64,000 nt of DNA from Naegleria gruberi. Its lineage: Eukaryota. The translations under genes were made by a program, and so were the position numbers. The stretch lies in NCBI GenBank assembly GCA_000004985.1, contig GG738905.1. The stretch is one strand, 5' to 3'. The notes beneath the pieces were generated by a model that searched no databases, was not told the origin of the DNA, and saw only the letters and a list, made by a program, of their open reading frames with translations. Shown here piece after piece: positions 31,541-63,659 of the stretch (its first letter is position 1; each line of letters starts with the position of its first letter).

Positions 31541-31603
31541 TAAATAGTATCAATATTAAGATGTCATTATTATATTAAGATAATATTTTCTACATGAATG
31601 AGA

Positions 31604-32335: not shown

Positions 32336-32435
32336 AGCTCCGTGCACCATTAATTAATCTTTTCTGACGGTTCAACCGTAGCAAAATAGCATTCAAAATA
32401 AAGCCTTTCTTCCCTATCTCTTGTGTAAAATGTAG

Positions 32436-33662
32436 ATGATTGGTTACCACACGTATCATTACAATGCCAATGTGACGTTGAACTTTACAAAAAAAATGCA
32501 ACAACAAGAAATCTTTCAAATTTTACCCAATGAATTGATCGGAGAAATTATCTGTGGCCACATTCATCATGTTGAACTAATTTTTTCGCTAAGAAATGTC
32601 TGTCGCTACTGGAGAGGTATTTGTCATGAATTAATATGGGATCACTATCAAGAAACAATTTTAAATCTCAACAAGAGTTGTAAACAAGTTGAGGATTTGG
32701 ATGATTTTCTAGATTCTAAAGAGGGAAGAAAATTCACCAAATATTTACTCCGAAAACAAGTTTATGAACTTGCTTGCAAATTATCAATTATTGGGTCAGG
32801 AGATGGGGAAGGTAACAAGCAAATTATTGCCATGAAAGAAAAATGGGTTGATGAAGAATTGAGAATTTTAAAGGGTTACTTTGAAAGATATTCTGATTTA
32901 CAAGAATCTCCAAATATTGCAATTGTGAAACCTCAACAACAACCATCATCGAAGGGCTTTTTTGGAGGGGCCTTGTCGTTTATTGGATCCTTCTTTTCAA
33001 GTAATACTCAATCAAACTCCCAATCAAATTCTCAATCAAATGCTCAATCAAATTCCCAATCAATTACCAGTAATGTTGTCAATAGTGCAACTCCAACTCA
33101 GAATTTACCTCCACCAACCCATGATTATCTCACTAAAGTACTATTGGATGGAGATTCTGGAAGTGGAAAGACTTCACTGCTCAACTGTTCCATGAATGGT
33201 TTGGTTGTGGAACAAAATGGCGCGTACTATCCTTCTATTGGCGTTGACTTTGCAATCAAAATGTTTCACTTTGGAGACACAACAAGAGTTAAACTTCAAC
33301 TGTGGGATCAATGTGGTCCAGAACGTTACAGATCTATCTCCATGTCGTTTTATAGAGGCGCTGCTACTGTTTTACTATTGCTTGATCCTAACTCTTACAA
33401 AGAATATGCCATAAAATCACTAGAGGAGAGGTTGAAATCTATCAAGAAGCATGCACCAAAGGCAGAAATAATTTTCATCACAACAAAGAAAGACAAGAAT
33501 CATGAGAGATGTATGTCAAATGAACAAGCAGATCAGTTTGCATTTGACAATTTTGGTGGAATGCATTTAGATATAACCAACACCCAATTAGAAGAACCAA
33601 AGAGAATTATTTGTTATAGCGCCTTACTCAAATATTTACTTTCCTCTAATATTTCTCCTTAA
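32436..33662 (+). CDS. F-box domain protein fused to a divergent Rab/Ras-like small GTPase domain, 408 aa.
   Basis: N-terminal F-box (ILPNELIGEIICGHIHHVELIFSLRNVCRYWRGICHELIW). C-terminal G-domain motifs: G1 LLDGDSGSGKTSLL, switch I YYPSIGVDF, G3 LWDQCGPERYRS, G4 TTKKD, G5 YSALL. An internal (QSNS)n repeat lies between them. Confidence 0.65.
   Translation: MIGYHTYHYNANVTLNFTKKMQQQEIFQILPNELIGEIICGHIHHVELIFSLRNVCRYWRGICHELIWDHYQETILNLNKSCKQVEDLDDFLDSKEGRKFTKYLLRKQVYELACKLSIIGSGDGEGNKQIIAMKEKWVDEELRILKGYFERYSDLQESPNIAIVKPQQQPSSKGFFGGALSFIGSFFSSNTQSNSQSNSQSNAQSNSQSITSNVVNSATPTQNLPPPTHDYLTKVLLDGDSGSGKTSLLNCSMNGLVVEQNGAYYPSIGVDFAIKMFHFGDTTRVKLQLWDQCGPERYRSISMSFYRGAATVLLLLDPNSYKEYAIKSLEERLKSIKKHAPKAEIIFITTKKDKNHERCMSNEQADQFAFDNFGGMHLDITNTQLEEPKRIICYSALLKYLLSSNISP
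33001..33060. repeat. 12-bp microsatellite (caatcaaattcc-like, x5) encoding a (QSNS)n tract inside the F-box/GTPase gene.
   Basis: Direct reading of the sequence. Confidence 0.7.
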
Positions 33663-33934
33663 TTTGAGAGTTAATCTAAGATCTCTCAAATCCAAATTCT
33701 AATTTATTGGACTTTTTGATTTAATTGTAAAATATTTACAAGTGGAATACCAGTATCGTATCAAATGTTGAAGCTTAAAGTCGTTCAAGAACATTGTAAT
33801 CACTGTAAAACGCACCAACTGAACCATAAGGTTCATAAGTGACCTGATTTGGTCAAAAGGTTCATTGTGCGGAAATTCAAGACAAATATCACACCACAAA
33901 AAAAACCTTAATCAACAACATCTCCCCAAAAACC

Positions 33935-35259
33935 ATGGTCGAATCCGTTGCTCAACAATTAAGCACCCTCTCCATTTCAACAGGTCCTTTCCAATCCGAT
34001 GGCGAACACTACAAGTTACTTAAAAACTATGAACAAATTGATGCCCACGCAAAATCTATTCCATCCAGTGAAACATCTACCCTTACACAATTGGTAACCT
34101 ACCTCACTAAACCATTCTCTAGCATTGAGGAAAAGGCAAGATCCATCTTTGTCTGGATTTGTGAAAATGTTGTCTATGATGCTGAGAGTTTCCTCTCCAA
34201 TCAGCATGCTGTCTATGTTCCAAGTGAACACGACAAGTTCTTTAGTGAAGATGAAAAGAAGATGTACTGCCCAACTTCTCGTCTTACCTTCATTCAAAAG
34301 AAGGGTGTTTGCAGTGGTTACGCAAGACTCTTCAAGAATATGTGTATTCAATCAGGCATTCAAAAGGTATCATGTGTTGTTGGTTTTGCAAAGCTTGTTG
34401 GTTTCAATCCTTTGAATCCAGTAGATATTAAGGAATCAAACCATGAATGGAATGCTGTTGAACTTGAAGACGGATCTCTCAGATTGATTGATGCTTGTTG
34501 GGGAGCTGGTGTTTTGGGCGGATCATCATTCCAAAAGATTTTCACATCAAGATACTTCTTCATGAGCCCAAATGAAATGATTGCTTCCCACTATCCAGAA
34601 GATCCAAAATTGCAATTAATTTCACCACCTGTTAGTCCTGATGATTTCGTTAATAGAGTTCGTATCAGTACTCATGGATTTGCGGATGGAATTAGCACTA
34701 TCACTCATAATGAAGCTTGCATTGTATTGACAGAATCAAATATTGCTGACATTGTCATTCAATGCGATGAGAATGGATTCCAAGTGTTGCTGATTTGTCA
34801 ACTGGTGAAGAACTTAAAGCTGCCTCTGCTCGTGTTGATGGTCACAATATTATTATCAGTGTTTGTGTTCCACAACCTGGTGTTATTTACCAACTTTCCA
34901 TTTTTGCAGGTGTTAGAAAGTGTGAAGAAATGTTGACTTATTTCGTTAGAGTTGAAGGTGGAGCTAATATTGAGGAAGTTTCCTATCCATCTGAATACGG
35001 CTCTTGGAAGACCTATGCTGGTGAATTAATTTCACCAAAAACTGGTAAAATGAAAGTTGGCACAACCTATTCATTCAAGATTCAATTCCCAGCTGATAAA
35101 ATGGTTGCCATGGTAATGATACCACCAAGTGATCAACTTGTTTCTAAGGGAAATGGTTTGTTTGAAGGTGAATACACCCCAACAGCCCCAGGAAAAGTCA
35201 ATCTTGTTGGTGGTTCTGGATCTAGACTTGAAGGACTATTGGCTTTCGATGTTGTATAA
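33935..35259 (+). CDS. Transglutaminase-like (kyphoscoliosis-peptidase-like) cysteine-protease-fold protein. The reading frame shifts near 34790.
   Basis: Cys-His core ...KKGVCSGYARLFKNMCIQSGI...NHEWNAVELEDGSLRLIDACWGAG... The ORF continues in another frame (34795..35259) with a domain-like sequence, and no intron signals separate the two. This implies a +1/-1 frameshift, an unconventional short intron, or a sequencing error. Confidence 0.55.
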
Positions 35260-35546
35260 TGTAATTGTAATAAAACCAACTTTTACATTAACAATCATAT
35301 CACTAACTTTTCAAAGATCGTAAATCATGCAAGAACCAGTTCTTTGAGATTGAGAATATTGTATTGACAGAATCAAGTACGAAATTATGATAATAGTATT
35401 GGAAAGATGAGTTGATATTTGAATAGTAAATTGAAGTTTAGTTAGGGAAATCAGTTTTCTATCCAAGTTTGGAACCTTACATCCAACTTTTTTGAGCTTG
35501 TTCCAAATGAAAAACTATTCGAAATGGTTTAAATTAGCACCATGGA

Positions 35547-36545
35547 TTGAACTATTCCATCCAACAAAAACAAAAAATGAAAGCAAATCTAATCTTTTCA
35601 ATTGCACTTCTACTTTTACTTGCAGTCCTCTCAGTTCAAGCAAATGACAGCTATCAAGCCAAACCTCCAGTCGTCGTTGTTGACAAGTATCACAAGCCAA
35701 AGCATTGTAAGAGAAAATGCTTAAAGCATAAGTGGATTAAGAAGTGTTTAAAACACAAACTCGTTGGTCAAAAGAAAGTCTGTGATCAATATGCCATTGT
35801 CGGAGCTGGTAAATGTCTTAAACATAAGAAATATTCCAAATGTGACAAGTATAGCAAGCCAACAAAGAAGTGTGTCTTGCATGCATACAAGATTGTTGGT
35901 TGTGCCAAGAAGAAGTACTGGAAAGTTTGTGATTCTTATGGAACAAAGAAGATTTGCATCAAGAAGGGTTACAAGAAATACTGTGCCAAACATAAGATTA
36001 TTAACAAGTGTTTCAAGAAGGGTGTTAAGAAGGTCTGTAAGAAATTCAAGAAGGTTCCAATCAAGAAATGTGAAAAGAAGAAGGTTTGCGACAAGTACAC
36101 TGTTGATTCCTACAATAAGAAGGTTTCCAAATGTAGATATGTTAAAAAATGTAAGATTGTTTCATGGGCAAAGAAATGTGCCAAGTATAAGAAGGTTAAA
36201 TATTGTAAGGAAAGAAAATCAGTTAAGAAATGTTGTCTCATTAAGAAGAAATACTGTGCCAAACATAAGACTATCAAGTTCTGTAAGCACAAGAAGATTC
36301 TTTCTAAATGTGTCAAATATCAAAAGAAGAAATATTGTGCCAAGACAATTGTCATTCCTCCAAGATGTATCAAGAAGAAGTATTATAAGAAGTGTTTGAA
36401 ACGTTCAAAGGGAAAGAAGATTTGTAAGAAATTTAAATTAGTTGGTGGAAAGAAGAAGTGTTGCAAGTCAATCAAAAAGAAGATTTGTATCAAGAGAAAG
36501 ACATGTAAGAAGTCATCAAAGCCAATCATCAAACCATCTTTGTAA
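35547..36545 (+). CDS. Secreted, extremely Lys- and Cys-rich repetitive protein (about 320 aa after the signal peptide). The likely start is the ATG near 35577.
   Basis: Signal peptide MKANLIFSIALLLLLAVLSVQA. The mature region is roughly 35% Lys with Cys every 8-10 residues, in recurring units such as KKYCAKHK(I/T)I.KC(F/L)KK. Confidence 0.6.
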   Translation: MNYSIQQKQKMKANLIFSIALLLLLAVLSVQANDSYQAKPPVVVVDKYHKPKHCKRKCLKHKWIKKCLKHKLVGQKKVCDQYAIVGAGKCLKHKKYSKCDKYSKPTKKCVLHAYKIVGCAKKKYWKVCDSYGTKKICIKKGYKKYCAKHKIINKCFKKGVKKVCKKFKKVPIKKCEKKKVCDKYTVDSYNKKVSKCRYVKKCKIVSWAKKCAKYKKVKYCKERKSVKKCCLIKKKYCAKHKTIKFCKHKKILSKCVKYQKKKYCAKTIVIPPRCIKKKYYKKCLKRSKGKKICKKFKLVGGKKKCCKSIKKKICIKRKTCKKSSKPIIKPSL

Positions 36546-36750
36546 ATGATTATTTTCAAATGTTTCTAATACCTTAATAAAGCCAGAACCATTCTGCAAA
36601 CTCTTATTGCAAACAAATTTCAAGAAATGTTGGAAATCCTATAGAAGTGAGTTCATTTGGAACAAGCTTCAATTAAACAATTTAAAATCAATTGTATAAG
36701 ATTAAGGTACTATTTTCATTATTAAGGTACTATTTTTACTATGAATGAGA

Positions 36751-36822
36751 TCCCGTGTAGTCCAATGGCTAGGATACCTGGCTTTCACCCAGGAGGTCCG
36801 GGTTCAATTCCCGGCATGGGAG
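36751..36822 (+). tRNA. tRNA-Glu (anticodon UUC), second identical copy.
   Basis: Identical 72-nt sequence to 31604-31675. The identity extends over 13 bp of 5' flank (atgaatgagat). T-run (tctttttacc) downstream. Confidence 0.9.
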
Positions 36823-37784
36823 GGTCCTTTTGCATATCTTTTTACCAGGCAAGGAATGTAAAACAGTTAAATTTTGAAGTAAACTTCTTGATACAAGTAA
36901 TATTTTCAATGTACCAACCTTCTCATCTTTACTCTCAATGAGCCTAACACCAAGTCTTTCACTTGCCCAATTGAATGCAAGCCTCACACAAAGAAAACTT
37001 GCTTCTCCTCCATGAATGGCCTATCAAAAGTACATACTTATCCTTCAAAGCATGGAAAATTAATTATGGAGACGGGAGCTTGGACCTTCACGTGATACGT
37101 GATGGTGGTTGCTGCCACTAAAACAATTCAAAGGGAGCCTACTTTGATTTTTCACAGTATTTTAACACTTCTTTGATTGAATTGTAACAGTATGTAAATA
37201 AATTAAATTAATCCTAAAAACATAAAATTTTTATGATTTCTTATGAAATGTTAAATGTTAATAGTAAGAACCAGAGTGTGACCAGAAAATATAATATCTT
37301 AGTGGTTGTTATTGTCACATTTCAATTATTATTTTGGACGGGAAGCCTGCCAGGAATATGGCAACAATCCCGCTACAGTCTTTGACTGTATGAACAGTGA
37401 AGGCAACTAATCTATTGATTGTTGGTTCAGTAAGTTATTGTTTAGAAAAGCTTGCTACGTGACCATCTATTTATCACCTTTAAATTTGATCTAATTAGAA
37501 AGAAACTTGTGGTTGATCAATAAACGATAAAATTTCGAATTTGAGTCTTCAAATATTGAAATAGTGTTCAAGATTAAAAGACTCAGCACCACAGGTTCCC
37601 AAGTTGTCTCCAACCTCAGTACTGATGTGGCTCGACGATGCTTAACTTCTCAAATCGGACGGGATGAGGTGCACTAAATTTATTAATAGAAACATGTCAT
37701 TCCAAAATTGTAAAATGATTAGCAAATCTAGGTTTCGATATTTTGAGGAAGGGGAAGTCTATTGAAACTTTATAATCTTGCTTA

Positions 37785-38264
37785 TTACTTGTTGTAAATA
37801 TTTTGTAAACACTTAATTCCATACTCAAATATTCCTTCAATAGCTTGTTGCCATTTCTTTCCTTCACCATGAGGACATGTAAATTCTGCCTTCCATTCCA
37901 ATAATGTGTTATCGAGCTTATCTGTTCCATTTGTAGTGATTGACTTTACTGAAATAGTTGCAAAGTAATCATTATTATATCCCTCCCATGGGATACCATC
38001 AACTAGAGAGTAGGTGTATGAAGAATTACGTAAATCCATGGCAATTAATCTTTCACGTTGAACAATACCATTTTTCATGGTGAGCTTTCGAATACCTCCA
38101 ACAGTATTATCCGATTGATTATTGTCCATTTCACTGCTGGCAACAGTATCATACCAAGTTGGTAAACCATTGAAAGAACCAATCAGTGACCAAACGGTTG
38201 ATGCACTAACATTTGGAATAACTCCACTCACATACACGTTAACAGTTTCGAATGCTCTTGACAT
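37785..38264 (-). CDS. SRPBCC (Bet v1/START/polyketide-cyclase-like) superfamily small protein, 159 aa.
   Basis: Size and secondary-structure pattern fit a ligand-binding SRPBCC fold, with a conserved W/G-rich N-terminal strand region. The assignment is tentative. Confidence 0.4.
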   Translation of the reverse strand: MSRAFETVNVYVSGVIPNVSASTVWSLIGSFNGLPTWYDTVASSEMDNNQSDNTVGGIRKLTMKNGIVQRERLIAMDLRNSSYTYSLVDGIPWEGYNNDYFATISVKSITTNGTDKLDNTLLEWKAEFTCPHGEGKKWQQAIEGIFEYGIKCLQNIYNK

Positions 38265-38483
38265 TTTTTCTTATTCTAATCTGTTGAATGAATTTCCCCT
38301 TTTTTTAACGAATCGTGTAAGAATTTTTTGTGCGTACTCGCAAATTAAAAAAGCACTATTTTTAATAAGCATAATTTTTTAGCTTATCCACACACACGTA
38401 CTAATCATAAGTATGAAAAAGTTATTTATATTATTTAGGAAAGTGAACCGTCAAACAAAACAAACAAAAAAAAACAAAGCACA

Positions 38484-39449
38484 ATGTCAAGCGAAATCAC
38501 AACATCAAATAACAAGAGCAGTATTCTTATTACTGGAGCAACAGGAACAATTGGAAAGCATTTATTGAAGTCACTTTCTGAACAGAAATCATTTGGTCAA
38601 TCAGTGAAGGTTTTGGTGAGGAATATTGAAAAGGCAAAACAAGAACTTGCAAATTATGTAAATAATCTTGATGTAGAATATATTCAAGGTGACTTGAATC
38701 AATTCGAATTAATTCCATCGAGTATTTTTGAAAAGATTGAAAGGGTTTTCGTTTTAACAGTGAGCGAACCAAATCAACCAAAAGTGGAAGAACAATTAAT
38801 TAACAAGATTCTTGAATATTCAAAGGATGATTTGAAACAAGTGATAAGATTATCTGGATTGGGAGCTTCAACAACCATTGAATCGAATAGTTTATTCAGA
38901 TATCATGGCGATTCTGAAGTTGTAATTGGTAATTTACTTTCAAATAAGGCACCAAGCGTTTCCTACGTAATTTTAAGACCTAATCTATTCATGCAAAACT
39001 TCCTTAGAGATGACATTCATTCAATCAAAAACTCATCTCAATTCTTCAAACCAAGAAACGATCATGGAATTCCATATCACATTAGTCATGTTGATGTTAG
39101 AGATATTGCCGATATGGCAGCTCAAATTCTCATTGAAAATCCAAATATTCATGGAGGACAAGTTTACAATATAACTGGACCTCAATCTTTGAATTATGAT
39201 CAAGTAGCTGAGATTATTTCCAAAGTTATTGGCAGACAAATTACTTGGACTAAAATTGATGAAATTGAGTTGGCTAATCAATTAAGCCAATTACCAAAGT
39301 TTTTAGTTATTGGGCTGGTGAGATTATTCCAATTTTACAAATTGAATGGAACCTCTGCTAATGTACATGCAGATTTTGAGATTGTCACTGGAAAGAAACC
39401 AAGATCTTTGGAACAATTCATTCAAGAAAATAAACACCATTTTGAATAA
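38484..39449 (+). CDS. NmrA-like / atypical short-chain dehydrogenase NAD(P)-binding protein, 321 aa.
   Basis: N-terminal Rossmann motif ILITGATGTIGKHLLKSL. The length and motif spacing are typical of the NmrA/PCBER family. Confidence 0.75.
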   Translation: MSSEITTSNNKSSILITGATGTIGKHLLKSLSEQKSFGQSVKVLVRNIEKAKQELANYVNNLDVEYIQGDLNQFELIPSSIFEKIERVFVLTVSEPNQPKVEEQLINKILEYSKDDLKQVIRLSGLGASTTIESNSLFRYHGDSEVVIGNLLSNKAPSVSYVILRPNLFMQNFLRDDIHSIKNSSQFFKPRNDHGIPYHISHVDVRDIADMAAQILIENPNIHGGQVYNITGPQSLNYDQVAEIISKVIGRQITWTKIDEIELANQLSQLPKFLVIGLVRLFQFYKLNGTSANVHADFEIVTGKKPRSLEQFIQENKHHFE

Positions 39450-39510
39450 TGTTCAATCCACAATTAACAAACAACCTCCAAAAAATTGCTCTTATCCATG
39501 AACTAAAATT

Positions 39511-39583
39511 TGCCGACACCAGGGATCGAACCAGGGACCTTAAGATCTTCAGTCTTACGCTCTCCCAACTGAGCTATGTCGGC
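39511..39583 (-). tRNA. tRNA-Phe (anticodon GAA), 73 nt.
   Basis: The reverse complement reads GCCGACATAGCTCAGTTGGGAGAGCGTAAGACTGAAGATCTTAAGGTCCCTGGTTCGATCCCTGGTGTCGGCA. This is a canonical tRNA-Phe cloverleaf with a T-run downstream. Confidence 0.9.
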
Positions 39584-52306: not shown

Positions 52307-52961
52307 TTTTTTTGACGGTAAATTGATTAGTGGCAGCTCGCTTCACTTTCCAACATCAAAGGCTGTTGTGAAATTGTTAACGAGAGAGCATCTTCTTGAT
52401 GGTGACTTTTTGAGGTTGGGTCTGTTTGTGGTGAAAAAAACAGAGCGGAGTGGTTTACAAAATGATAACTGGCATGTGATTGGTGTGGAGAGGTTTAAAA
52501 GTCCTTTGGCGGAACAGAGATTTTGAAGCATCCGATTCTGTTATCAACTCTTTCTGTTACAAATTATCGAAATGATGATCATATTGTTATTACAATATTT
52601 TATGTGTTTTACAATTGTATTTAATTATTTAAATGTTTAATTGACTTTAACAAACAGGTCGTAAATAAAGCTATTATGAAAGAGAAATTAGAGCAATAAA
52701 TGCTATCATTCGCGCCTAATAGCTTTTGTTAATGAATAGCAAGTGAATTGTTAATGGAATACACCAATGAAATTCAAAGTGGATTAAACTATTCAATGAT
52801 TGCTTGTATTGAAGAGTTGGTTTACAATTATTTGGCTTGTAATCTTTAAACAAGGGTTACGACAAACACACCAAAAAAATTGAAGGCTGTTTAAATGAGA
52901 TATGGTAACGATTTGGAACAAAGTTCAGTAAAAAAGTCAATTAATACTCAACTATTGACTC

Positions 52962-53062
52962 AAAAAATTAAAAATGAAAAATCTAGAAAAAAATGGGTAT
53001 TAATCTGAGGTTATTTAAAAAATAGATACACATCTTCAGTGTCTAAATTTTGAGAATCAACT
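52962..53062. repeat. Copy 1 of a roughly 100-bp dispersed repeat (...aaaatgaaaaat.tcag.aaaaaaat.ggtat.aatctgaggttatttaaaaa...acacatctt.agtgtctaaattttgaga...). It lies 80-180 bp from tRNA-Gly copy 1.
   Basis: About 85% identity to 59884-59982 in the same orientation. Non-coding. Confidence 0.55.
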
Positions 53063-53121
53063 ACCATCTAATGGTTACTACATACTATTCAAAAATTGAG
53101 AATGGACATTGAAAGTTGGAT

Positions 53122-53256
53122 GAAAGAAAAAGAAGCGACTGCGTCGACCGGGAATTGAACCCGGGTCACGGCGATGGCAACGCCGTATTCTACCACTAAA
53201 CCATCGACGCTTCACATTTATTTAGAATGTAACCTTAATTCGACACTAAGGGGATC
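53122..53256. repeat. Roughly 135-bp segment (tRNA-Gly plus about 50 bp of 5' flank and 18 bp of 3' flank) duplicated in inverted orientation at 59570-59702.
   Basis: The reverse complement of 59570-59702 matches 53122-53256 with two or three mismatches or indels. Confidence 0.8.
53140..53210 (-). tRNA. tRNA-Gly (anticodon GCC), 71 nt.
   Basis: The reverse complement reads GCGTCGATGGTTTAGTGGTAGAATACGGCGTTGCCATCGCCGTGACCCGGGTTCAATTCCCGGTCGACGCA. This is a canonical cloverleaf with a T5 terminator in the 3' flank. Confidence 0.9.
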
Positions 53257-53344
53257 GCTTTTATGTATTTATTTATTGAAAATTAAAATCTAAAAGCATA
53301 TGTGAAAAAACTCAAAACCTTATTAATTTCAATATTAAAGTTTT

Positions 53345-53947
53345 TCAATTCAAAACAACGGATGGGATTACAACGGCCATTACTACAATTAAACCTACCA
53401 ATGCTAAGAGAATCAAGAAGGGTAACCAAGTTTTCAATATGCCACTCACTCCATTAACATATTTTCCATAGAAAAACATTAAAAATCCAATTTCAACAAT
53501 GCCAATATTTCTATTCTTGAATTTCATTTGATTTAAACAATGAACCGTATAATGATGACAATTCTGACAAAAGAAATTATACATTTTCGATCTAAAACAT
53601 TTGGCTCCACTCTTAATATTCGAATCATAATTTTCCAATTGTTCTTGACTCAATTGATTCTTAATATTTAAATATCGGGTTGGTTTTCCAAATGCAAAAT
53701 CATCAACACTAATATAATAAGGTCCAGCAAAATCATGGATAATACCTTTTGAATTGGCAATACCCATATGTCCAACAAATGGTAAAAACCATGTTATCAA
53801 TGGAATTGGTGTCCAAACAATACAATAGGGATATCTATCTCTACTCGGATCAAATAATTCTTCCGATGATGATAAAATACCATCATAACTATTTGAGTGT
53901 GTTGATCCGATAATTTCCTCTGTATCTTCTGTATCTTCGTTATTCAT
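53345..53947 (-). CDS. TMEM222/DUF778-like membrane protein, 200 aa.
   Basis: ...YPYCIVWTPIPLITWFLPFVGHMGIANSKGIIHDFAGPYYISVDDFAFGKPTRY... resembles the DUF778 core. A C-terminal TM helix is present. The assignment comes from remembered family motifs. Confidence 0.5.
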   Translation of the reverse strand: MNNEDTEDTEEIIGSTHSNSYDGILSSSEELFDPSRDRYPYCIVWTPIPLITWFLPFVGHMGIANSKGIIHDFAGPYYISVDDFAFGKPTRYLNIKNQLSQEQLENYDSNIKSGAKCFRSKMYNFFCQNCHHYTVHCLNQMKFKNRNIGIVEIGFLMFFYGKYVNGVSGILKTWLPFLILLALVGLIVVMAVVIPSVVLN

Positions 53948-54271
53948 TTTTTTTAATATTTTAATTTTGAAATTTAGTTAATTTTATTAAACAAGCAAGT
54001 ACATTAGGATAGTTTCCAATACGTATGAAGTAATATTCAAAATTTGTACCTTATTGAGTTGTCATATTTGACTATTTTATCCCAAATACTATAATTGTTT
54101 CACTTTACAGGATTTTGCTGGCTTCAAATTGCTAACTAAGTAAAGTTTGGTAGATTAAAATTAACTGTTTCATTTCTGAAATACAACACTGTTAATGGAT
54201 TAATTATTTGTTTTGTTTCCAAAATGCGTTTAGCTCCTTTCTGAAATGTCTTCAACATAAATACTTAATAT

Positions 54272-55372
54272 TTACAAAAATCTAGAAACATTCTTTCCAA
54301 AATCTTCATATTCATGCCTGTCTAACCAAACTTCTCGGAAGGTGGACATGGAAGAAAATATAGATCCTCCAATCCATGAGGAGTATTTTCTGGTAGGTTT
54401 CTCACTCACTTTACATTCGACACTTGAGGGAATCAAGTTTGAAAATTCCCTGTTGAATCTTTCAATAAATCCTGGAAACATTGTATTTCCTCCACAGACA
54501 ACAATGTTCTTAAATAAATCCTTTCTCATATCAATATCAGAACTTCTAATAGAACTATTAACTAATTCGTGAACTCCAACAAAATCAAGATCCATCAATT
54601 GAGGTTGGAACATTAATTCAGTTGCCTTGATTCTAAGTGTTGATACATTCATTATTGTTCCATCAGGTAACTCATATTCTTCAGTCTTTGGTTCTGTCAA
54701 CTCCTTTTCATAATTTTGAGCAACATAGCAGACTTTTCTCTTGGCATCTCCTGCAATTTCTCTTTCTGCAGCAGTGTAGCTTTGATATCCTGACTCCAAT
54801 AAGAGTGAATACAACGATCTAGTTAAATCCCCTCCTCCGAATGGTATTGTTTGCAAAGCGTTTCTAATTGGTTTTCCTTCATAAATAGGAAGAGCATAGG
54901 TCAGCTCTTTACCTGAATCCAAAACTGTTCCACTCACAATTCCAGAACTTTGCATAGCCATCACACCTTGAACTGAAAAATATAGAGCAGGAACTCCAAA
55001 TGATTCAAACAAAATTTCCATAATTTTCTCTCTACCTTCCACAGTATTGACAGGAGAATCAGCTATTAGTAAGGGATGATCCATTGGATCTACTCTCAAT
55101 TCATTCTTAAAACAATGAGCAAATATCTTTTGCAAATGATCGAAATTCGTGATGGATCCTCTTTGGAAAGGATGGCTAATATTCAATATTCCCCTCTTAC
55201 TCAAAGCATCGGATCCAACATATTCCCCTAACTGGAGAACATTCATCTTCTTGAATTGCCCCAAACATGTTGGAAGATCAACCCTTGGAGCATCATCTCC
55301 TGAAAACCCACATTTTGTATGACCAGAACCAATATCAAAAACTAAGCCCTGAGGAAGTTCATCTTGTTCCAT
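54272..55372 (-). CDS. Divergent actin / actin-related protein, 366 aa.
   Basis: Collinear with actin at about 40% identity (...FDIGSGHTKCGFSGDDAPR...SKRGIL...HPLLIADSPVN...REKIMEILFESFGVPALYF...DSGKELTYALPIYEG...KYSSWIGGSIFSSMSTF...). Confidence 0.75.
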   Translation of the reverse strand: MEQDELPQGLVFDIGSGHTKCGFSGDDAPRVDLPTCLGQFKKMNVLQLGEYVGSDALSKRGILNISHPFQRGSITNFDHLQKIFAHCFKNELRVDPMDHPLLIADSPVNTVEGREKIMEILFESFGVPALYFSVQGVMAMQSSGIVSGTVLDSGKELTYALPIYEGKPIRNALQTIPFGGGDLTRSLYSLLLESGYQSYTAAEREIAGDAKRKVCYVAQNYEKELTEPKTEEYELPDGTIMNVSTLRIKATELMFQPQLMDLDFVGVHELVNSSIRSSDIDMRKDLFKNIVVCGGNTMFPGFIERFNREFSNLIPSSVECKVSEKPTRKYSSWIGGSIFSSMSTFREVWLDRHEYEDFGKNVSRFL

Positions 55373-55767
55373 TTTTTTTTAAATGTACCAGCACCAATGG
55401 TGCTAACAATAAACTATTTAGATTTTTTTTTAAATGTTAGATCAATACTTAATAGTTCAAAGCAGTTATTTAAGCATTAAAGTATTGAGCGTTGAGATAA
55501 AACTCAAAAAATAAACAATAGTAATAGTACAGATTCAGATATCAAAGTAAATTGTTGAATACTATTAAATTGATCACTATTGATTATTTAAATATTTTCT
55601 TCATACTAGAATTTGAATTACTAATGAATAAATCATTTACTGAATGTCCAATCCTTCCACACAAATAGAATATCTCAGATAATATTGTTTTCCTGAGTTT
55701 GATTAGAGTTAACTGCTTTTGCATTAGATTTTGCTGTCAATGACTGATGGCATCTATTTCACGAATA

Positions 55768-57097
55768 CTACACATCAATAATTATCACAAGATCCGATAA
55801 AGCCTTAGTGGACAGCAAAGAGCCAAGATTCCGTTTCATATGTAGTTCACCCTTTCTGGTTTCGTCAAATATCTCATAATAAATAACATATTGCCAACCT
55901 CCAACTGAGATAGTATTGAACTCTTCCCTATCAAATGTAGTAATATTAAACTTGAACAATGATGGATTAAGTTTGAGTTCTGATGGAGGAAAATCTGAAA
56001 CAACCTCACCAGCCATGAATACATCACCATTTGCTTTAGAAAAGTGTTAAATAAATGGAAAATTATATTAAACCTACTATTAATTACAACAGTTCCTCTG
56101 GAAGAACATGCTATCTCTTTAGGAATTCCAAAATCAAATTCAATTAATCTGAAATCTGAAAGAGAATCAATACCAGCATCAGCAATACCAAATGTAGATT
56201 GCTTCAAAGTATTGTAACCACATCCGAATATTTGATTATTCTCTAAAAGAACAATTGTATGGAAAAATCCACATTTAACATCCTTGATATTTGCAGGAAA
56301 TTCAAATGGAATCTTTTCGAAAAAACTTGATGAAAAATCATTATTAACTGAGGTGAACACATTAAAAGTGTTATCTCCTCTGGCATAGAGATGCTTATCT
56401 GAAGCCAAAACTACTCCACTTCCACAACATGCTGCAAGTTTAATAATTGTTGGGCTTTCTTTAGTATTCAATGAAAATTGCTGATTATTAACAAATACTC
56501 TTCTATCATTGGTTAATACTACATGATGTGAAGATAATGGTCCACAGAAAAACTTATTAATTCCTCCAAAACTCGAATAGTCCTCAATTTTAAATTTCGG
56601 GTCAGTTTCAATATAATCTATTATTCCAATTCTTGTCTTCTCCAATAAAAAGATGTGGCCACCACCCATTCTATATTGAATTTTCTTAGGATTTCCCATT
56701 AAATCATTAATATAATAACCAGTGACATGTTTAACTTCTTGTGGTGTAGTATCTGTTTCCATCAGAAGTGAATCAAAAACATTTGATTTCTTCTTAATTT
56801 TAATAGCCATAGAATTATCTGCAATACTACGCGGTTTACTTGTAAATTCTACCAATCTATTGGTATCACTACAAACAAAAAAGACAAATCTATCCCCCGA
56901 CAATATCTTACTAAATTTAAAGTCATCAAATTCATATTTTGTCCATCTAGTTGTACTTTCCAATCCCAAATCTATTCCATGAATAATAATTATCATCATC
57001 ACAATTTAAATCATGTAATTCTAGTCTCCGTTCCGATAAAATAATAATACTTACTTGCTGAAGCAAAATAATTGGCCAGCCAAAATGATTTAGACAT
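55768..57097 (-). CDS. RCC1-like repeat (beta-propeller) protein. Three exons: join(57055..57097, 56078..56971, 55768..56033).
   Basis: Exon 1 MSKSFWLANYFASA. Intron 1 (GTAAGT...AATAG) and intron 2 (GTAGGT...CTAAAG) join in consistent phase. RCC1-type blades are present (...VKCGFFHTIVLLENNQIFGCGYN..., ...LAACCGSGVVLASDKHLYARGDN...). Confidence 0.6.
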
Positions 57098-57465
57098 TTT
57101 TTCTTGTTGGTCAATTCTGGAATGGATTCAACACTCTTATTAAACTACTTGAGGTGTTGTGCTTATTTTCAAGCCAATAATTTTTGTTTATTATTGGATA
57201 ATGTTAGAGAATCATATTCCAAGTGAAAATTCTTTGAAGCTGTGCTCAACCAACATGTTCTTGCATTGAAACTCCTTCATTTATATGATAGAGAATATGG
57301 ATTAATCCATTGTGTTTTAACGTTTAGATATCCATTAATTCATCTCAATGAAGAAATTAATAAAGACCCTTACCAAGAAATTGGATGAACACGCAAAGAA
57401 ATCAATTACTTCCACAGTAATAAATCAATCCCGCACTTTACAGAATATTGAACTTTCTATATTGA

Positions 57466-59031
57466 TTACTCATAGCACTTATCGAAGTATTCAACAAATG
57501 ATGAATGTGAAATGGATGCCACAAATCTTCCTATGCTTAAATCATAGTACTCCTTAATGGAGTCATAATCTGCATCACCACTAACTCTAGATATATTTGC
57601 ATGCATTACAAGGTGGTGAATTAGCGATTCATTTTCAATAAAATGTTTCTTGACAAGATTGTGAACTTTTCCTTCTGACCAATTAGTAATTGGTTCGTAT
57701 TGAATGTCCATTGATTGAGGAATAATCTCTACATATGGAATCTCTCTTAATAAATCACATTCTAAAAATCTTTCCAATATTGAAAATCCTTGCAACGAGA
57801 TTCTCAATAGTTTGGGAAATCTTTTTCTTGTTAGCCCAGCAATAATATTCTTTTCAATTTTTTCATAATTCTCAATATTTTCGCAATATTCAGGGCAGTC
57901 GTATCGAATAGTCAGATCACGAACATTTGGAAATACTCCCTCTTCCTCTAGAAAATTTGAATAGAGTAATGCACCTTCATCAAAGTAGGTAATTGTACTA
58001 AAACGAAAACATAGATATTGAATATGATCTGGTATAGAAAATCCCTGATAGGTCCACTCATTTAAATTAATTGATAAAGCAATGTAATTCGAAGCCATTT
58101 GCTTAAAAATAGAAAAATCTTGTAAATTATTCAAATCAACCATTAATCCAAGGGCCTTTGTATCAGAAAAATTTTGAGTGAATAGTCCTTTAGAAATTAA
58201 GCAACAATTTTCAAAAGTATCATAACTGTTATAATATCCACTATGTTTTTCGCTATCAAAGTGTGAAATCATATCCAAAGATAACATGAGAGCCTTGTGT
58301 AAAAACAAATCATATGCTAAAATTTGATTATGCTCTTCTATCTTTTCAAATTTTTCATTTGAAAACATTAACTGTTGAATTCTTCTCTCAAATTGTTGAT
58401 TAACTTCATGAGTATCAAATTCATTCTCAATTTCTGTTATATCAACATTAGCACCGCCCCAACTATCAATACATTCTGAAGTATCAATTATATCAGCATA
58501 CTCTCTATTGCAATTCATTTCTGTGGTCTCAATTAATTTCTGCATTTTCACATAACCAATTGATTCCCCAACTGAAATATCCCCTTTTGCCAATGACAAT
58601 CCCTCCGATGATGCAAATCTCTGCCAATAAACAACCATCTCCAAAACATTTGAAACTCTCCTCCAAAATTCATTCATCTCCACAACAAATAATGCTTTAA
58701 ATTTCTTAGATACAGCACAACAAAACTTTTGTATCGTCCTCACAGTACTCAAATCCAATCGTTCAATCATCCGAGGTTGAACCACTTTTTTAAATTTCAT
58801 AATTTGATCATGATTATTTAATTCAATTTGATGAAGTGGTCCGAGCCAATACTCGAAAATACAACACTGCCAAATTTCCGTTGGAATTTCCAACAACTGA
58901 TGATCTTCTTTCATTTTTAATTTTTGTTGAAATTCGAAATTGTGGTTGATTGATGTAAAAATAGATTTGTAATTTTGAATTAAGGCTAAATTGGGAATCA
59001 ATTTTGTAAGATTGTCCAGCATTAGTGCCAA
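57466..59031 (-). CDS. Hypothetical protein (521 aa), possibly with a degenerate F-box and LRR-like C-terminus.
   Basis: Single long ATG ORF with coding composition. The N-terminal ...LEIPTEIWQCCIFEYWLGPLHQIE... segment is weakly F-box-like. Confidence 0.45.
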   Translation of the reverse strand: MALMLDNLTKLIPNLALIQNYKSIFTSINHNFEFQQKLKMKEDHQLLEIPTEIWQCCIFEYWLGPLHQIELNNHDQIMKFKKVVQPRMIERLDLSTVRTIQKFCCAVSKKFKALFVVEMNEFWRRVSNVLEMVVYWQRFASSEGLSLAKGDISVGESIGYVKMQKLIETTEMNCNREYADIIDTSECIDSWGGANVDITEIENEFDTHEVNQQFERRIQQLMFSNEKFEKIEEHNQILAYDLFLHKALMLSLDMISHFDSEKHSGYYNSYDTFENCCLISKGLFTQNFSDTKALGLMVDLNNLQDFSIFKQMASNYIALSINLNEWTYQGFSIPDHIQYLCFRFSTITYFDEGALLYSNFLEEEGVFPNVRDLTIRYDCPEYCENIENYEKIEKNIIAGLTRKRFPKLLRISLQGFSILERFLECDLLREIPYVEIIPQSMDIQYEPITNWSEGKVHNLVKKHFIENESLIHHLVMHANISRVSGDADYDSIKEYYDLSIGRFVASISHSSFVEYFDKCYE

Positions 59032-59613
59032 ATTTGTATTCTTTTAAGATGATTGAGTTAGAGGCATTATTAATTGTAGGCCAATCATCGAGGCAAGTTT
59101 CTTCAATATAGTTGTCAAATGAACACTATGAAGTATTACACTTGAGGTTAAGGCGCATTTCCTTCAACAAAAAAAACAACTCAAAATAAACACTTTAACA
59201 TGAAGTTCTCAATTTTGGCTCTTTTCCTGTACTATTTGTCTGCTCACTCTATTACATTAGAAAAAGACAGTTCTTAACTGATGCTTTGTGCCACATTACG
59301 GCAATTGCTAATACTTAGACCTACTCTGAATATATATTTATTGTGAATTGATTGCATTACAGTTCTATTGTAAAGATCAATGGCACTGTAATCAACAGTC
59401 AAATTTATCATCATTTATGGGTATGGCTGCAATGTGGATTACAATATCAACTAATAAGCAGTTTATATTCTCCATTATGGATATTATATTATATAATATT
59501 TGGATTGGATGATTGAAGGCGCAAAATAGTTTACCTTATCCGAAAAATTAAAGTAACTGGTAACTTCGTATCCCTTAGTGTCGAATTAAGGTTACATTCT
59601 AAATGAATGTGAA

Positions 59614-59684
59614 GCGTCGATGGTTTAGTGGTAGAATACGGCGTTGCCATCGCCGTGACCCGGGTTCAATTCCCGGTCGACGCA
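59614..59684 (+). tRNA. tRNA-Gly (anticodon GCC), second copy. It is in inverted orientation relative to the copy at 53140-53210.
   Basis: Identical 71-nt sequence. T5 terminator (gtcgcttctttttc) downstream. Confidence 0.9.
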
Positions 59685-59883
59685 GTCGCTTCTTTTTCTT
59701 TCATGGTCCATTCTCAATTTTTGAATATCATGTAGGAACCGTTTGAGGGTAGCTTGTGCCTTAGATGACTGATTGTATGGAGTAAAAAAATTCTTCTCAT
59801 TTTTTTTTGAAATCACAAATATTAGCATATTATGATTCCTTTTTGGACTAATAATTCCATTTACTTTTAATTAAAACCATTTA

Positions 59884-59982
59884 CTCAATAAAATGAAAAA
59901 TTCAGTAAAAAAATAGGTATCAATCTGAGGTTATTTAAAAATCAACCACACATCTTAAGTGTCTAAATTTTGAGATAATTGA
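59884..59982. repeat. Copy 2 of the roughly 100-bp dispersed repeat. It lies 200-300 bp downstream of tRNA-Gly copy 2.
   Basis: About 85% identity to 52962-53062 in direct orientation. Confidence 0.55.
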
Positions 59983-60433
59983 TCTAAATTGTTTTATCCT
60001 TCCTTTTGTTATGATAGAGAGATGGTCTTACTCGCCTCGCATATTAAGCATGGATTACGAATGTTTGATCCAAAATTCAGATAATCCAATAATTGCATTG
60101 GAATATTTGAAAAATCACGCCGACAAATAATATGACTTGGATAAGGACTTGTTTAATTTGAATTTCGTTATCAAAGCAGTGGATCTTAATTCAGAAGTTT
60201 TTGACGTAGTATAATTTCTATCAAAACGATCCTAGTGTCATGCTGAAAGCAGCTTTTGGAGGTGGTCCTAATGTAAAAGGTTTATGTAAGATTAAGGATT
60301 TCACTCTTATCAAGAAGGTAATGAAAGCGAATCCACTCGCTCTTAAAAATTGTAAAGAAATTCAGATAAATGGGCCCACTAGCTCATAAAAGGTAGAATT
60401 ATATCAACACAAGAATTTTAACATAAATGTGCT

Positions 60434-60504
60434 CGTCTCGTGGTGTAATGGTAGCATAGTGGACTTTGAATCCATTGACGGAGGTTCGATTCCTCCCGAG
60501 ACGG
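60434..60504 (+). tRNA. tRNA-Gln (anticodon UUG), 71 nt.
   Basis: CGTCTCG acceptor pairs with CGAGACG. D-arm GTGTAATGGTAGCAT. Anticodon stem GTGGA/TCCAT with loop CTTTGAA. T-arm GGAGGTTCGATTCCTCC. Discriminator G. T-run about 30 bp downstream. Confidence 0.85.
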
Positions 60505-60630
60505 TAAACGTGGCGAGCCATGAAATTTTTAACTCATTTTTTTAACATTACAATGTTAACTTGGTAAATTCTGGAAACTTGAAAAAAAAATGTATTTCAG
60601 TGTAGCTGATCCCAATAGGATCATGAGGTA

Positions 60631-61644
60631 TTATCTTGAATTAAGAGAACATGAGTAATATTTTCTGTGTGCTTTACCAACAAGCAGTGATAATAGACTT
60701 TGAATTTCATGCCAATTATCAATGATTTTAGGATTATAGGATTTAACTAAAATAATATTTAAAGCCTTAATAAAGCCTCTATGATTTAAATTGAGAATTG
60801 AATTGTGTCTATCCCAAAAAGTGTCATGGGGACGAAGCTTACAGGATGCTCCTGTAAGATTCGTGAATTTAGTTAAGAAATATCTTCTAAAACATTCGGT
60901 TTCTTCACAGTAGTATATGAAACGTTCCAAATCCACTTCACATTCACAGTTATCACAATAAACTTGACGAAATTGTCTAATATGTGAGTCGGTCATGTTT
61001 CTCCAAATTGACAATTTGGTTTCAGTGTCAAATCTTTGATCCATATATTTCAAATTGATATGAGTGAGGGACTGACTTTGGTTAAAAGGTAAGTCAGATT
61101 TATCCTCAAAAATATCTAAATATTCTTTTCTCTGGATATCTTTGATGTATTTTCTATAGTCAAAGATGATTGTTTTCTTATTAGTATTAATTAAAATCTT
61201 TTGGTTTTGGGATAATAGTTTGGTAATATCAATCATATTTTGTCCTTGTGCACCTTCTTTTGCTAATTTATCAACTATAATATTCTCTGGATCTTCATGC
61301 CCTTTCACTTTAACTAGATGGATATTTAAATGTTTATCCTTAATGGTACCAAAGAATTCTTCTTGAAATCCTTGAAAGTCTCCTCTGTAACTCTTTTTTA
61401 AAACTTCTATAGCAACTTGACTATCAGTAGGAACATTAGCATTGGAATGATTTGGCAGCATTTTGATTGCTGTCAAAAAAGCCATGATTTCAGCCACGTT
61501 ATTGGAATATTCTTCATGAATCTTGAAGGAATATTTGAAACTTCTATTTTCTGAATTAAATATATTAATTCCAAATCCCACTTGGTTTTCAATCTTTGAT
61601 CCATCTGTGTGAATATTAAATGAATGACCCCCATTTGATCCAAA
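60631..61644 (-). mobile_element. 5'-truncated retroelement fragment. It contains an RNase H domain plus a Cys-rich C-terminal region (ORF2/pol C-terminus), and its 3' end faces tRNA-Gln about 125 bp away (TRE3-like geometry).
   Basis: All five RNase H catalytic residues are present in context: ...IHTDGSK..., ...NNVAEIMAFLTAI..., ...VPTDSQVAIE..., ...VKVKGHEDPEN..., ...IVDKLAKEGAQ. This is followed by about 190 aa containing CDNCECEVD...YYCEETEC. There is no in-frame ATG, TAA/TGA stops sit directly upstream, and there is no RT domain. The sense strand points toward the 3' side of the adjacent tRNA gene. Confidence 0.55.
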
Positions 61645-61682
61645 TTAAAATCATTAAATTGTTAAAAAAAACTTGAAAAAAA

Positions 61683-63659
61683 ATGTCATCATTTGAACAA
61701 CCCACCAAAAAGATAAAACTTTCCAGTGATCATCAAGTTCTGGTTCACCTCTCAGATCGTGCCTTCTCATCGGAAGAGACAACATTCCAACATCTCAAGA
61801 AACAATTAGGAGGTGAAAAGATAGAATCCTCTCTAATTGATTTAAAGATAATTCACCAATTGGAATGTATTAGAATTGATTGTAGTAGTATCCGTGCTAC
61901 TTGTGTTGCTACATGTCAAAAGAAGAAGGAATTATTTGTTGCATGTACTGATTGTAAAATTCGAGTCTATGATGTAGAGAGTAGAGAATTGAAGAGGACG
62001 ATCTCTACATTTGATTATATTCCAACTCGAATGGTCGTAGGGGATGAAGGTGAATTTATTGTTTTTGTTACTAATAGTAGAAAACAATGGGCCATTATTA
62101 GATTGGGTTTGTTGGGTGAGGAAAAGATTGATTGGGAAGTATGTAAAGATAACTCGTCCAAGTGTGAATTGATTTATAGAAAGGCAACTAGTGAAATATT
62201 TGTTGCCAATTGGAAAGCCCATAAGATTTTGGTGTTGGATGCAATCAGTGGCTCTTTAAAGTATGAAATTGCAAATGAAAATACTAAATCAGTTCAAAGT
62301 TTATACTATGATGAAAAGACTGAAAGTCTTTACGCATTTACTTCCCTTTCTTTGTATACCTATCAAGAATATAATGGAAATTATATGGGAAAATGTCATT
62401 TATTGAGATTATATGGAGAGAATTATGTGAATTGTGAGGTTCTTATTGAATTTGATGAGGAAGAATATAAGTTGAATAATAAGGGATTTTCCGGTATTAT
62501 TATGGATCTCTCAGCTCCTTATTATTTGCTTTCACAACAATCTTTAGTTTATTTGTTTGATAGAAACTCAAAGAAGTTAGTCTCCAAGATCAACACTGTC
62601 CATGAAAACTCCCGAGATGTTCTTCGTTATTCGTACAATCCTTCGAATAATGAGCTTTACAGAATTGGAGGAGATGAATCATTGGTTGAAATTTTACAAT
62701 TATGCAAAGTTGAAACCAACCATATTGATATACCGTTGAGTAGTAATAATTGCCAATTAATTGAAAAGTTGGGTGGTGTCTTGCCGAAACAAATTGTGAA
62801 ATACAGATACAATAATGAATACATACTGTCAGATGCACTTGCATATTTCATGAACATACAATTCCCTAAAAATGTAATGTTCAGATTTAATGTTAGTACC
62901 CCAAGTGAAACAGAGAACACAGAGGGAGATGAAAACCATGAAATGGAAGATGATGAAGAGGAATCCTCAAAAAGTCAAGTAAAAGATGAGGATGATGAAG
63001 AGGAAGAAGAGGAAGATTATTTGGTACCTTTTCCATTTAAATATTCAAACACAAAAGATAGGTCAAATGAGATTCCTCCTGAGGCTAGTAATTGGTTGAA
63101 AGAAAATCCTGATGGAATAATTATTGGAGGAGACTTTAATACAGATAGATTGGGAGAGGCTATCCAATTCGCATATGCTGTAAAAATAACAGAAACTGAC
63201 AATGATGACTTTCCAATATATATTCTCTTTGAGGATGGACCAGAACGGTACAAACTCTCTAAATTTCTTTCAAATTTGAAAGCTGTTTCTTCCTTTGATT
63301 TGACATCGTATTTCCTACCAAAGAAGGCCAAATATGAAATTGATTTTTCAAAAATTTATAATGAGCTAATCAACACAAAAGTCATTAATCCAGAAACAAA
63401 ACAAATAGATCCTGTCATTCTACTTGATGCTTACAGAAACCTTACTTCTGTTAATGATGACAAACATCATCAAATTTTCACAATTTGCTCCATAATCTTC
63501 AACGACGAAACCATTACTTTTGATAATGTCAAATTTAGAAAAAATGATTTGCTTGCTTTAATGCTATTTTACGATATTGATGCTATGGAAGAAAGCGATA
63601 ATCATCAACTGCTTAGGGCTAATTTTGAAGATCAAGAGTACGAAGATGTGTTTTGCTAG
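61683..63659 (+). CDS. Hypothetical protein (658 aa) with an internal acidic (D/E-rich) tract.
   Basis: Long ATG-initiated ORF with typical composition. No recognisable motif. Confidence 0.5.
   Translation: MSSFEQPTKKIKLSSDHQVLVHLSDRAFSSEETTFQHLKKQLGGEKIESSLIDLKIIHQLECIRIDCSSIRATCVATCQKKKELFVACTDCKIRVYDVESRELKRTISTFDYIPTRMVVGDEGEFIVFVTNSRKQWAIIRLGLLGEEKIDWEVCKDNSSKCELIYRKATSEIFVANWKAHKILVLDAISGSLKYEIANENTKSVQSLYYDEKTESLYAFTSLSLYTYQEYNGNYMGKCHLLRLYGENYVNCEVLIEFDEEEYKLNNKGFSGIIMDLSAPYYLLSQQSLVYLFDRNSKKLVSKINTVHENSRDVLRYSYNPSNNELYRIGGDESLVEILQLCKVETNHIDIPLSSNNCQLIEKLGGVLPKQIVKYRYNNEYILSDALAYFMNIQFPKNVMFRFNVSTPSETENTEGDENHEMEDDEEESSKSQVKDEDDEEEEEEDYLVPFPFKYSNTKDRSNEIPPEASNWLKENPDGIIIGGDFNTDRLGEAIQFAYAVKITETDNDDFPIYILFEDGPERYKLSKFLSNLKAVSSFDLTSYFLPKKAKYEIDFSKIYNELINTKVINPETKQIDPVILLDAYRNLTSVNDDKHHQIFTICSIIFNDETITFDNVKFRKNDLLALMLFYDIDAMEESDNHQLLRANFEDQEYEDVFC

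Follow-up and report, generated by a model that had tools for sequence, protein, structure and literature searches.

The tRNA-Gly(GCC) gene occurs twice in a 64-kb stretch of Naegleria gruberi nuclear DNA (contig GG738905.1, assembly GCA_000004985.1; the whole stretch of 64,000 nt is called the window hereafter), at 53140-53210 on the minus strand (tRNA-Gly-L) and at 59614-59684 on the plus strand (tRNA-Gly-R), as located with ARAGORN and Rfam. Both genes lie in an inverted repeat of 133 nt (53120-53252 / 59572-59704) with a single mismatch (99% identity by the repeat finder; self-BLAST E=1e-63), and a more diverged direct repeat of about 100 bp, named D1 here, is found close to each of them. 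The inverted duplicate pair of tRNA genes described in the initial annotation was thus borne out by ARAGORN, Rfam, and the 133-bp inverted repeat alike. The best reading of this tRNA-Gly patch is that of a real but ordinary feature, namely a rearranged local duplicate with a conversion tract.

Structure of the inverted repeat

The 133-bp unit consists of an upstream flank, the tRNA gene, and a downstream flank. In the left arm (53120-53252, minus strand) the 3' flank with a run of five T (T5) occupies 53120-53139, the tRNA gene 53140-53210, and the 42-bp upstream flank, with the heptamer ATTAAGG at 53233-53239, the remainder; the right arm (59572-59704, plus strand) contains 42 bp of upstream flank with ATTAAGG at 59585-59591, the tRNA gene at 59614-59684, and the 20-bp 3' flank with T5. 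When the unit was compared part by part, the upstream flanks were identical at 41/42 positions, the tRNA genes at 71/71, and the downstream flanks including the T5 run at 20/20, and no similarity between the two loci was found beyond upstream position -42. Duplication of the tRNA together with its T-run had been claimed before and holds, while the accompanying 5' flank of ~50 bp was reduced to a measured 42 bp. Since both genes are complete and identical, have the 42-bp upstream flank in common, and are followed by a T-run terminator, tRNA-Gly-L and tRNA-Gly-R are both predicted from their sequences to be functional RNA polymerase III (Pol III) genes.

The inverted homology extends further on the downstream side, a feature missing from the initial annotation. 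Beyond an indel of 11 nt, positions 53058-53119 can be aligned with 59705-59756 at 86% identity over 51 aligned positions (44 matches and 7 mismatches, 86.3%). We call this block I2. Its left copy, I2-L (53058-53119, minus strand), is the diverged downstream flank of tRNA-Gly-L, carries the 11 extra nt at 53109-53119, and ends 2 bp from the left copy of D1; its right copy, I2-R (59705-59756, plus strand), is the diverged downstream flank of tRNA-Gly-R in inverted homology with I2-L.

Four minus-strand genes (53345-59031) are enclosed between the inverted arms, and the earlier statement that the repeats bracket four such genes was correct. They are mutually unrelated: an RTE1/TMEM222-like open reading frame (ORF) at 53345-53947, an actin-like ORF at 54272-55372, an RCC1-like ORF at 55836-57002, and a 521-aa ORF of a Naegleria-specific family at 57466-59031. 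The 133-bp inverted repeat could flip this four-gene block.

The direct repeat D1

The two copies of D1 are located at 52950-53055 (D1-L) and 59875-59975 (D1-R), and their alignment has 87 matches, 13 mismatches, and 7 gap columns, which corresponds to 87% identity without gaps and 82% with gaps (E=2e-20 to 5e-22). This confirmed the direct repeat of ~100 bp that had been noted at both tRNA copies. The inverted repeat and D1 are both far beyond chance. D1-L is 84 bp from the 3' end of tRNA-Gly-L and D1-R is 190 bp from the 3' end of tRNA-Gly-R, and the orientation of D1 relative to its own tRNA is opposite between the left and right loci. At the left locus D1-L and the inverted block are only 2 bp apart, whereas at the right locus an unrelated spacer of 118 bp (59757-59874), which has no left counterpart, intervenes between I2-R and D1-R. 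Two inner blocks of D1 are conserved, one of 20 nt without a mismatch (AATCTGAGGTTATTTAAAAA) and one of 31 nt with one mismatch.

Neither BLAST (word sizes 11 and 7) nor a profile search with nhmmer --max, which applies no filter, yielded a third copy of D1 in the 64 kb or a further copy of I2, and no D1 was present beside the other five Pol III genes (two tRNA-Glu, tRNA-Phe, tRNA-Gln, and 5S rRNA). Likewise, D1 and I2 were not detected by BLAST or nhmmer --max in ten fetched loci (~100 kb) from other Naegleria-type genomes and from an environmental strain 99% identical to the window. A metagenome scan with the exact 71-nt tRNA-Gly returned one JGI contig from another species, which had unrelated flanks and no D1, and the ten small ORFs around D1-L and D1-R had no exact match in the collection searched.

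Further, D1 did not resemble any RNA gene or coding sequence. In Rfam (E up to 10) no match overlapped D1-L, and on D1-R there was solely a weak sno_ncR3 match, at 59956-60029, which overlaps the final 20 nt of the repeat and scores 20 bits versus a gathering score of 88. Folding of both strands gave z-scores of -1.4 to +0.9, and the two copies folded differently, with no common structure. No tRNA-like match that would indicate a tRNA-derived short interspersed element (SINE) was found with ARAGORN or Rfam (E up to 10), and the one-base and five-base indels between the copies exclude a coding function. As read from the sequence, short inverted repeats terminate D1-L (TTGACTCAAAA / TTTTGAGAATCAA), which is flanked by a 7-bp TCAACTA repeat; D1-R has no such flanking repeat, and its inverted ends, CTCAA / TTGAG, are degenerate.

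The initial annotation had also suggested that D1 could be the terminal fragment of a tRNA-associated retroelement, and this suggestion found no support. No A-run was found at either end of D1 on either strand, no similarity to reverse transcriptase (RT), apurinic/apyrimidinic endonuclease (APE), or ORF1 was found nearby (tblastn with 30 retroelement proteins and ORF1 matched only 60634-61728), and the divergence of D1 equals that of I2. The only retroelement remnant of the window, a fragment without long terminal repeats (non-LTR) at 60594-61668, gave no self-BLAST match with D1, and the D1 profiles did not match the element copies in the fetched loci (L006-L010). The minus strand of D1 and the 3' end of the retroelement have 8 nt in common (ACACTGAA, followed by a T-run), which we judged to be chance, since this match is not conserved in related elements and its surroundings do not align. 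D1 is most likely passenger DNA without a function of its own.

Divergence pattern and origin of the pair

I2 and D1 are diverged to the same extent (44/51, 86.3%, versus 87/100, 87.0%; Fisher p=1.0). By comparison, 61/62 of the non-tRNA positions in the core are identical, versus 131/151 in I2 and D1 (Fisher p=0.0096), and a sharp identity step of this kind between the core and the outer parts is what gene conversion between the tRNA units would leave. Both signs of a local duplication with gene conversion were therefore found, namely adjacent parts of equal age and a sharply bounded tract of high identity. A single event fits these data because D1 and I2 are equally diverged and, in the left copy, contiguous (2 bp apart). 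Selection on the flanks alone fails to explain the identity of the core, since a second tRNA pair in the window, tRNA-Glu(TTC) at 31539-31676 and 36686-36823, keeps only its nearest 10 upstream nt identical. On balance we consider it probable that the tRNA-Gly pair derives from one old local duplication of a ~300-bp patch with an internal orientation switch, and that the tRNA unit later underwent gene conversion. The segment had been thought to reflect either recurrent tRNA-targeted insertions or proneness to recombination; the identity step (p=0.0096) agrees with the latter, and the former gets no support, D1 being absent at the other Pol III genes of the window.

The age of the duplication can be judged against an environmental metagenome (ENA ERZ929261, run ERR1078381; contigs L001 and L006) that contains a Naegleria strain 98.4-99.2% identical to the window at the DNA level. 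Contig L001 differs from the window by only ~1%, so the 13% divergence is old relative to the split of this strain from the window. The strain is represented by short contigs only, which cover RCC1-actin and, separately, a copy of the RNase H element discussed below, and a tRNA-Gly junction is not reached by any of them.

The proposed scenario is that of a single ancient copying event over ~6.5 kb, from the right locus as the donor to the left, whose compact patch would be the derived copy. The ~300 bp of the tRNA-Gly locus so transferred would have taken in the tRNA with its 42-bp upstream flank and its terminator, then ~55 bp of sequence downstream of these, and the ~100-bp D1. Had the right locus been duplicated by plain inversion, the order expected on the left would be D1 (inverted), spacer, I2, tRNA; the order actually present is D1 (direct), I2, tRNA, with the spacer absent. 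This order could be produced by one template switch, in which the tRNA unit and I2 were copied from one strand and, after a jump of 118-220 bp, D1 was copied from the other strand, a patchwork of the type expected from replication-based template switching or templated break repair. Because a single template switch yields the layout of the left locus exactly, our preference is for a patchwork of this type, made during replication or repair and templated by the right locus; the equivalent in several steps would be for a simple inverted duplicate to have undergone a small inversion and an indel. I2 and D1 would then have drifted to ~86-87% identity, and the 133-bp tRNA unit would have been re-homogenised by gene conversion between the inverted copies.

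From what is generally known of template-switching mechanisms, the arrangement is similar to products of fork stalling and template switching (FoSTeS), microhomology-mediated break-induced replication (MMBIR), or templated break repair, in that donor segments of 185 bp and 100 bp, lying 118 bp apart, abut 6.5 kb away, one of them inverted and one direct. It differs from these in having no demonstrable junction microhomology at ~13% divergence, and its direction and mechanism are those that we infer. In yeast, tRNA genes are established sites of replication fork stalling and of rearrangement breakpoints, and they may have acted in the same way in N. gruberi at this locus.

The pair can also be compared with dispersed tRNA-gene duplication and concerted evolution, with which it shares identical tRNAs, common flanks that decay with distance, copies separated by a few kb that contain unrelated genes, and a very large set of tRNA genes (tDNAs). 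The tRNA-Glu(TTC) pair of the window follows the same pattern: its copies, both on the plus strand, are in direct orientation, 5.1 kb apart with four unrelated ORFs between them; identity is complete over the tRNA and the adjoining 10 nt of upstream flank and falls to roughly 75% over the 55 nt beyond, and on the downstream side no homology was found. The tRNA-Gly pair differs from this pattern in the opposite relative orientation of D1 and in the 118-bp spacer present in one copy, and is therefore not a simple inverted duplicate. No protein-coding paralogues were found among the window ORFs and neither tRNA pair is accompanied by any, so the copying process appears to move only short (140-300-bp) tRNA-bearing patches over a few kb. 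The tDNA complement of N. gruberi is 924 (PMC2888827), and this number, together with the local duplication with flanks of 2/4 tRNA species in the window, suggests that short-range tRNA duplication is recurrent in the genome. The tRNA-Gly pair would then be one more example of tRNA genes multiplying locally and staying identical via gene conversion in a 924-tDNA genome.

Several points weigh against a single duplication followed by conversion. The orientation switch and the 118-bp spacer require a template switch or extra steps, and any junction microhomology is not recoverable at 13% divergence. The right locus is indicated as donor solely by the compactness of the left patch. With two copies, a later re-copying of the 133-bp unit gives the same pattern as gene conversion does. 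Moreover, the weak terminal inverted repeats of D1-L and its TCAACTA flanks could hint at a mobile origin, and it is possible, with low probability, that D1 belongs to a dispersed family, the search for its copies having covered the 64 kb and the ~100 kb of fetched loci.

Alternative explanations

If D1 were a short mobile element or a terminal fragment of one (a non-LTR 3' end, a miniature inverted-repeat transposable element, or a SINE-like element), its two copies would represent independent insertions downstream of tRNA genes. Both copies do lie downstream of a tRNA gene (84 and 190 bp), D1-L does possess short terminal inverted repeats with a 7-bp flanking direct repeat, and a genuine retrotransposon insertion, the non-LTR fragment, is present in the same intergenic region downstream of tRNA-Gln. 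There is also precedent in the dictyostelid elements TRE3 and Skipper-2, which demonstrate that insertion can be directed to a zone ~100 bp downstream of tRNA genes (PMC5006619). TRE elements have two ORFs, an APE-RT-zinc finger arrangement, and a poly(A) end, and their position is fixed at ~50 bp upstream or ~100 bp downstream of tRNA genes (PMC5006619). D1 is like TRE3 and Skipper-2 in its location roughly 100-200 bp downstream of a tRNA gene in a compact genome, but it has neither an RT, APE, or zinc-finger ORF nor a poly(A) end, its distance and orientation to the tRNA vary, and there are no copies at other tRNAs of the window; it fails every testable feature that defines a TRE. The non-LTR fragment shares with D1-R the intergenic interval, 600 bp away, and the position downstream of a tRNA gene, but differs from D1 in its clear target duplication and coding remnants, and the two have no sequence similarity. 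Against a mobile origin we also count the lack of a D1 copy elsewhere in the 64 kb, the opposite orientations and different distances relative to the tRNA, the missing A-tail, the absence of the putative target duplication at D1-R, the lack of similarity to the window fragment or to five related elements, a divergence equal to that of the adjacent co-duplicated flank I2, and the fact that the sole retroelement family identified has no tRNA association elsewhere (0/4 other copies). Independent insertions of D1 are hence unlikely in our view. It is quite unlikely, too, that D1 is an undescribed short non-autonomous family that lands in either orientation in the Pol III-occupied zone downstream of tRNAs, with the tRNA-Gly pair as a hotspot of insertion and tRNA-unit copying; if so, Heterolobosea would have their own counterpart to the tRNA-targeting elements known from dictyostelids and yeasts. 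Only as a dispersed tRNA-associated element would D1 have a bearing on the more general question of by what means mobile DNA reaches safe sites in a compact protist genome.

The direct orientation of D1 as against the inverted orientation of the tRNA units, and the 118-bp unrelated spacer on the right, could also mean that D1 was duplicated in a separate event and that the adjacency is coincidental, but it is very unlikely that two independent 100-200-bp duplications would have landed side by side at both ends of the one 6.5-kb interval, within 2 bp on one side and 118 bp on the other, and the divergences are equal, which leaves this explanation distinctly improbable. It is just as doubtful that selection has kept the D1 copies similar for a function as a cis element, such as a promoter or terminator module serving both loci, or as a small RNA gene. 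The two strongly conserved inner blocks (20 nt with no mismatch, 31 nt with one) might be taken that way, yet with only 13 substitutions per 100 nt uneven conservation is expected by chance, and D1 has no Rfam family, no significant or common fold, and no other copy in 64 kb of gene-dense DNA. The geometry, with direct repeats just outside inverted terminal repeats, would also fit a composite transposon-like cassette of 6.8 kb bounded by the inverted tRNA-Gly units, for which D1 would be a very long target-site duplication. A target duplication of 100 bp is far beyond the known ranges, however, the right inverted arm is not terminal but lies 118 bp from D1-R, and the block comprises housekeeping-type genes only, with no transposase, integrase, or RT. 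No empty site was recovered, and at the RTE1 orthologue loci of N. lovaniensis, Willaertia magna, and one other relative (a Logan contig) the neighbors were different, synteny was lacking, and no tRNA lay beside RTE1; we regard a cassette as highly improbable. Finally, repeats are classic points of misassembly and the locus was analysed in one assembly, so that a misjoin or collapse at the repeated tRNA has to be weighed. The NEG-M genome was reportedly Sanger shotgun sequenced, and the identical stretch of 133 bp is shorter than a Sanger read. Each arm has unique and different flanks, D1 and I2 cannot collapse at 13% divergence, and the inner order RCC1-actin was confirmed by an independent metagenome contig of the 99%-identical strain, all of which make an artefact extremely improbable.

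Non-LTR retrotransposon fragment beside tRNA-Gln

Pfam searches of 38 large ORFs of the window revealed no transposase, integrase, or RT except for one RNase H fragment, which belongs to the only mobile-element remnant in the window (Pfam; tblastn). This remnant is a 5'-truncated and frameshifted non-LTR retrotransposon fragment (60594-61668, minus strand) that retains the C-terminal RNase H and CCHC regions of an APE-RT-RNase H ORF2. It is located 69-88 bp downstream of tRNA-Gln (60433-60505) and against the ATG of a WD-repeat gene (61683-63659), and its RNase H ORF (60631-61581, minus strand) is 650 bp to the right of D1-R. A target-site duplication, AAACTTGAAAAAAAA(A)TGT, is present at 60575-60593 and 61669-61686 (15 nt exact, 19 nt with one indel). 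In an exhaustive HMMER search, a 412-aa relative (P0127) matched over its full length the C-terminal 400 aa of proteins of 793-1213 aa, which carry RVT_1 and RNase_H domains and, in P0140, also Exo_endo_phos_2 (APE-type endonuclease). A knuckle of the form C-x2-C-x7-H-x4-C follows the RNase H domain in the family, and its H is changed to R in the window copy. The fragment is 98.4% identical to a copy of the element in the ERZ929261 strain (L006), which is in a different genomic context with flanks that differ on both sides. Given the ORF2 C-terminal homology, the 5' truncation, the target-site duplication, and the 98.4% identical copy with other flanks, this is a bona fide retrotransposed non-LTR fragment. 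That the RNase H ORF is a stand-alone cellular gene had been suggested by three RT-less homologues in a word-indexed search and was overturned by the exhaustive HMMER search.

No tRNA was found within 265 bp to 10 kb of the four related copies with readable flanks (L006, the N. fowleri loci L008 and L010, and the metagenome contig L009), so the family appears to be without TRE-like tRNA targeting. In five copies of the family, from N. gruberi, N. fowleri, the 99%-identical strain, a Logan assembly contig, and a metagenome contig, an A followed by a run of T7-T9 on the sense strand stands directly after the short 3' untranslated region, in place of a poly(A) tail (window 60582-60593; L006 1339-1347; L007 5271-5279; L008 12982-12990; L009 3344-3350). 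Since the T-run of the window copy belongs to the target duplication, this suggests that the retroelement family inserts at oligo(T)/oligo(A) tracts.

The fragment has also affected gene annotation. The GenBank model P0130 (720 aa; 57469-61485, minus strand) splices the retroelement remnant (61485-60844) to the 521-aa ORF (about 58986-57469) across an "intron" of ~1.85 kb that holds tRNA-Gln, D1-R, and tRNA-Gly-R. The paralogues of the 521-aa ORF have no RNase H part, and the fusion is therefore very likely an annotation artefact. For annotation, the value of the tRNA-Gly locus lies in two functional-looking tRNA-Gly genes, the 133-bp inverted repeat, and this mis-fused model. Possibly of more practical use are the by-products, namely the mis-fused model, the non-LTR fragment with its clear target duplication, and the candidate motif ATTAAGG.

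The upstream motif ATTAAGG

ATTAAGG (context ATTAAGGT[T]AC.ATT) was observed 13-50 bp upstream of the tRNA-Gly and tRNA-Glu genes, at 53233-53239 (minus strand) and 59585-59591, 36701-36707, and 36721-36727 (plus strand), with the variant ATTAAGA at tRNA-Glu1. It occurs also at both tRNAs of a foreign heterolobosean-type contig (L005, about 22-28 and 194-200), and is absent at a Willaertia tRNA-Thr. There are 25 sites in the window versus 12.6 expected, and 4 of them fall in the 300 nt that the tRNA upstream regions comprise. ATTAAGG is a candidate Pol III upstream promoter element of Naegleria tRNA genes.

Other features of the window

The window is gene-dense, with a G+C content of 30-37%, and four of its ORFs are exact GenBank N. 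gruberi proteins (EFC38745, EFC38747, EFC38748, and EFC38677). According to ARAGORN and Rfam its Pol III genes are two tRNA-Glu, tRNA-Phe, two tRNA-Gly, tRNA-Gln, and a solitary 5S rRNA. Part of these form a cluster within 8 kb (31604-39583), which consists of the two tRNA-Glu genes, 5S rRNA (37578-37699, minus strand), and tRNA-Phe (39511-39583, minus strand); given this setting, the 5S gene is dispersed and not in the ribosomal DNA unit.

Between D1-R and tRNA-Gln, at 60011-60389 on the plus strand, a stop and a frameshift separate three broken ORFs (39, 25-27, and 49-59 aa), which have the appearance of coding sequence in decay. Pfam gave them no significant match (the best E values were 0.083 and 0.21), and no relative of theirs was found in the window. 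In the 540-bp spacer from the 521-aa ORF to tRNA-Gly-R there is a weak C/D-box snoRNA-like match to snoMe28S-Cm2645 (59355-59420, minus strand; 28.9 bits versus a gathering score of 48, E=0.012), with an ATGATGA C box and CTGT at the D-box position. A short tandem or overlapping direct repeat with offsets of 33, 72, and 105 bp and 81-90% identity is located at 7485-7669, where it adjoins the downstream side of an RdRP-domain ORF (6475-7425).

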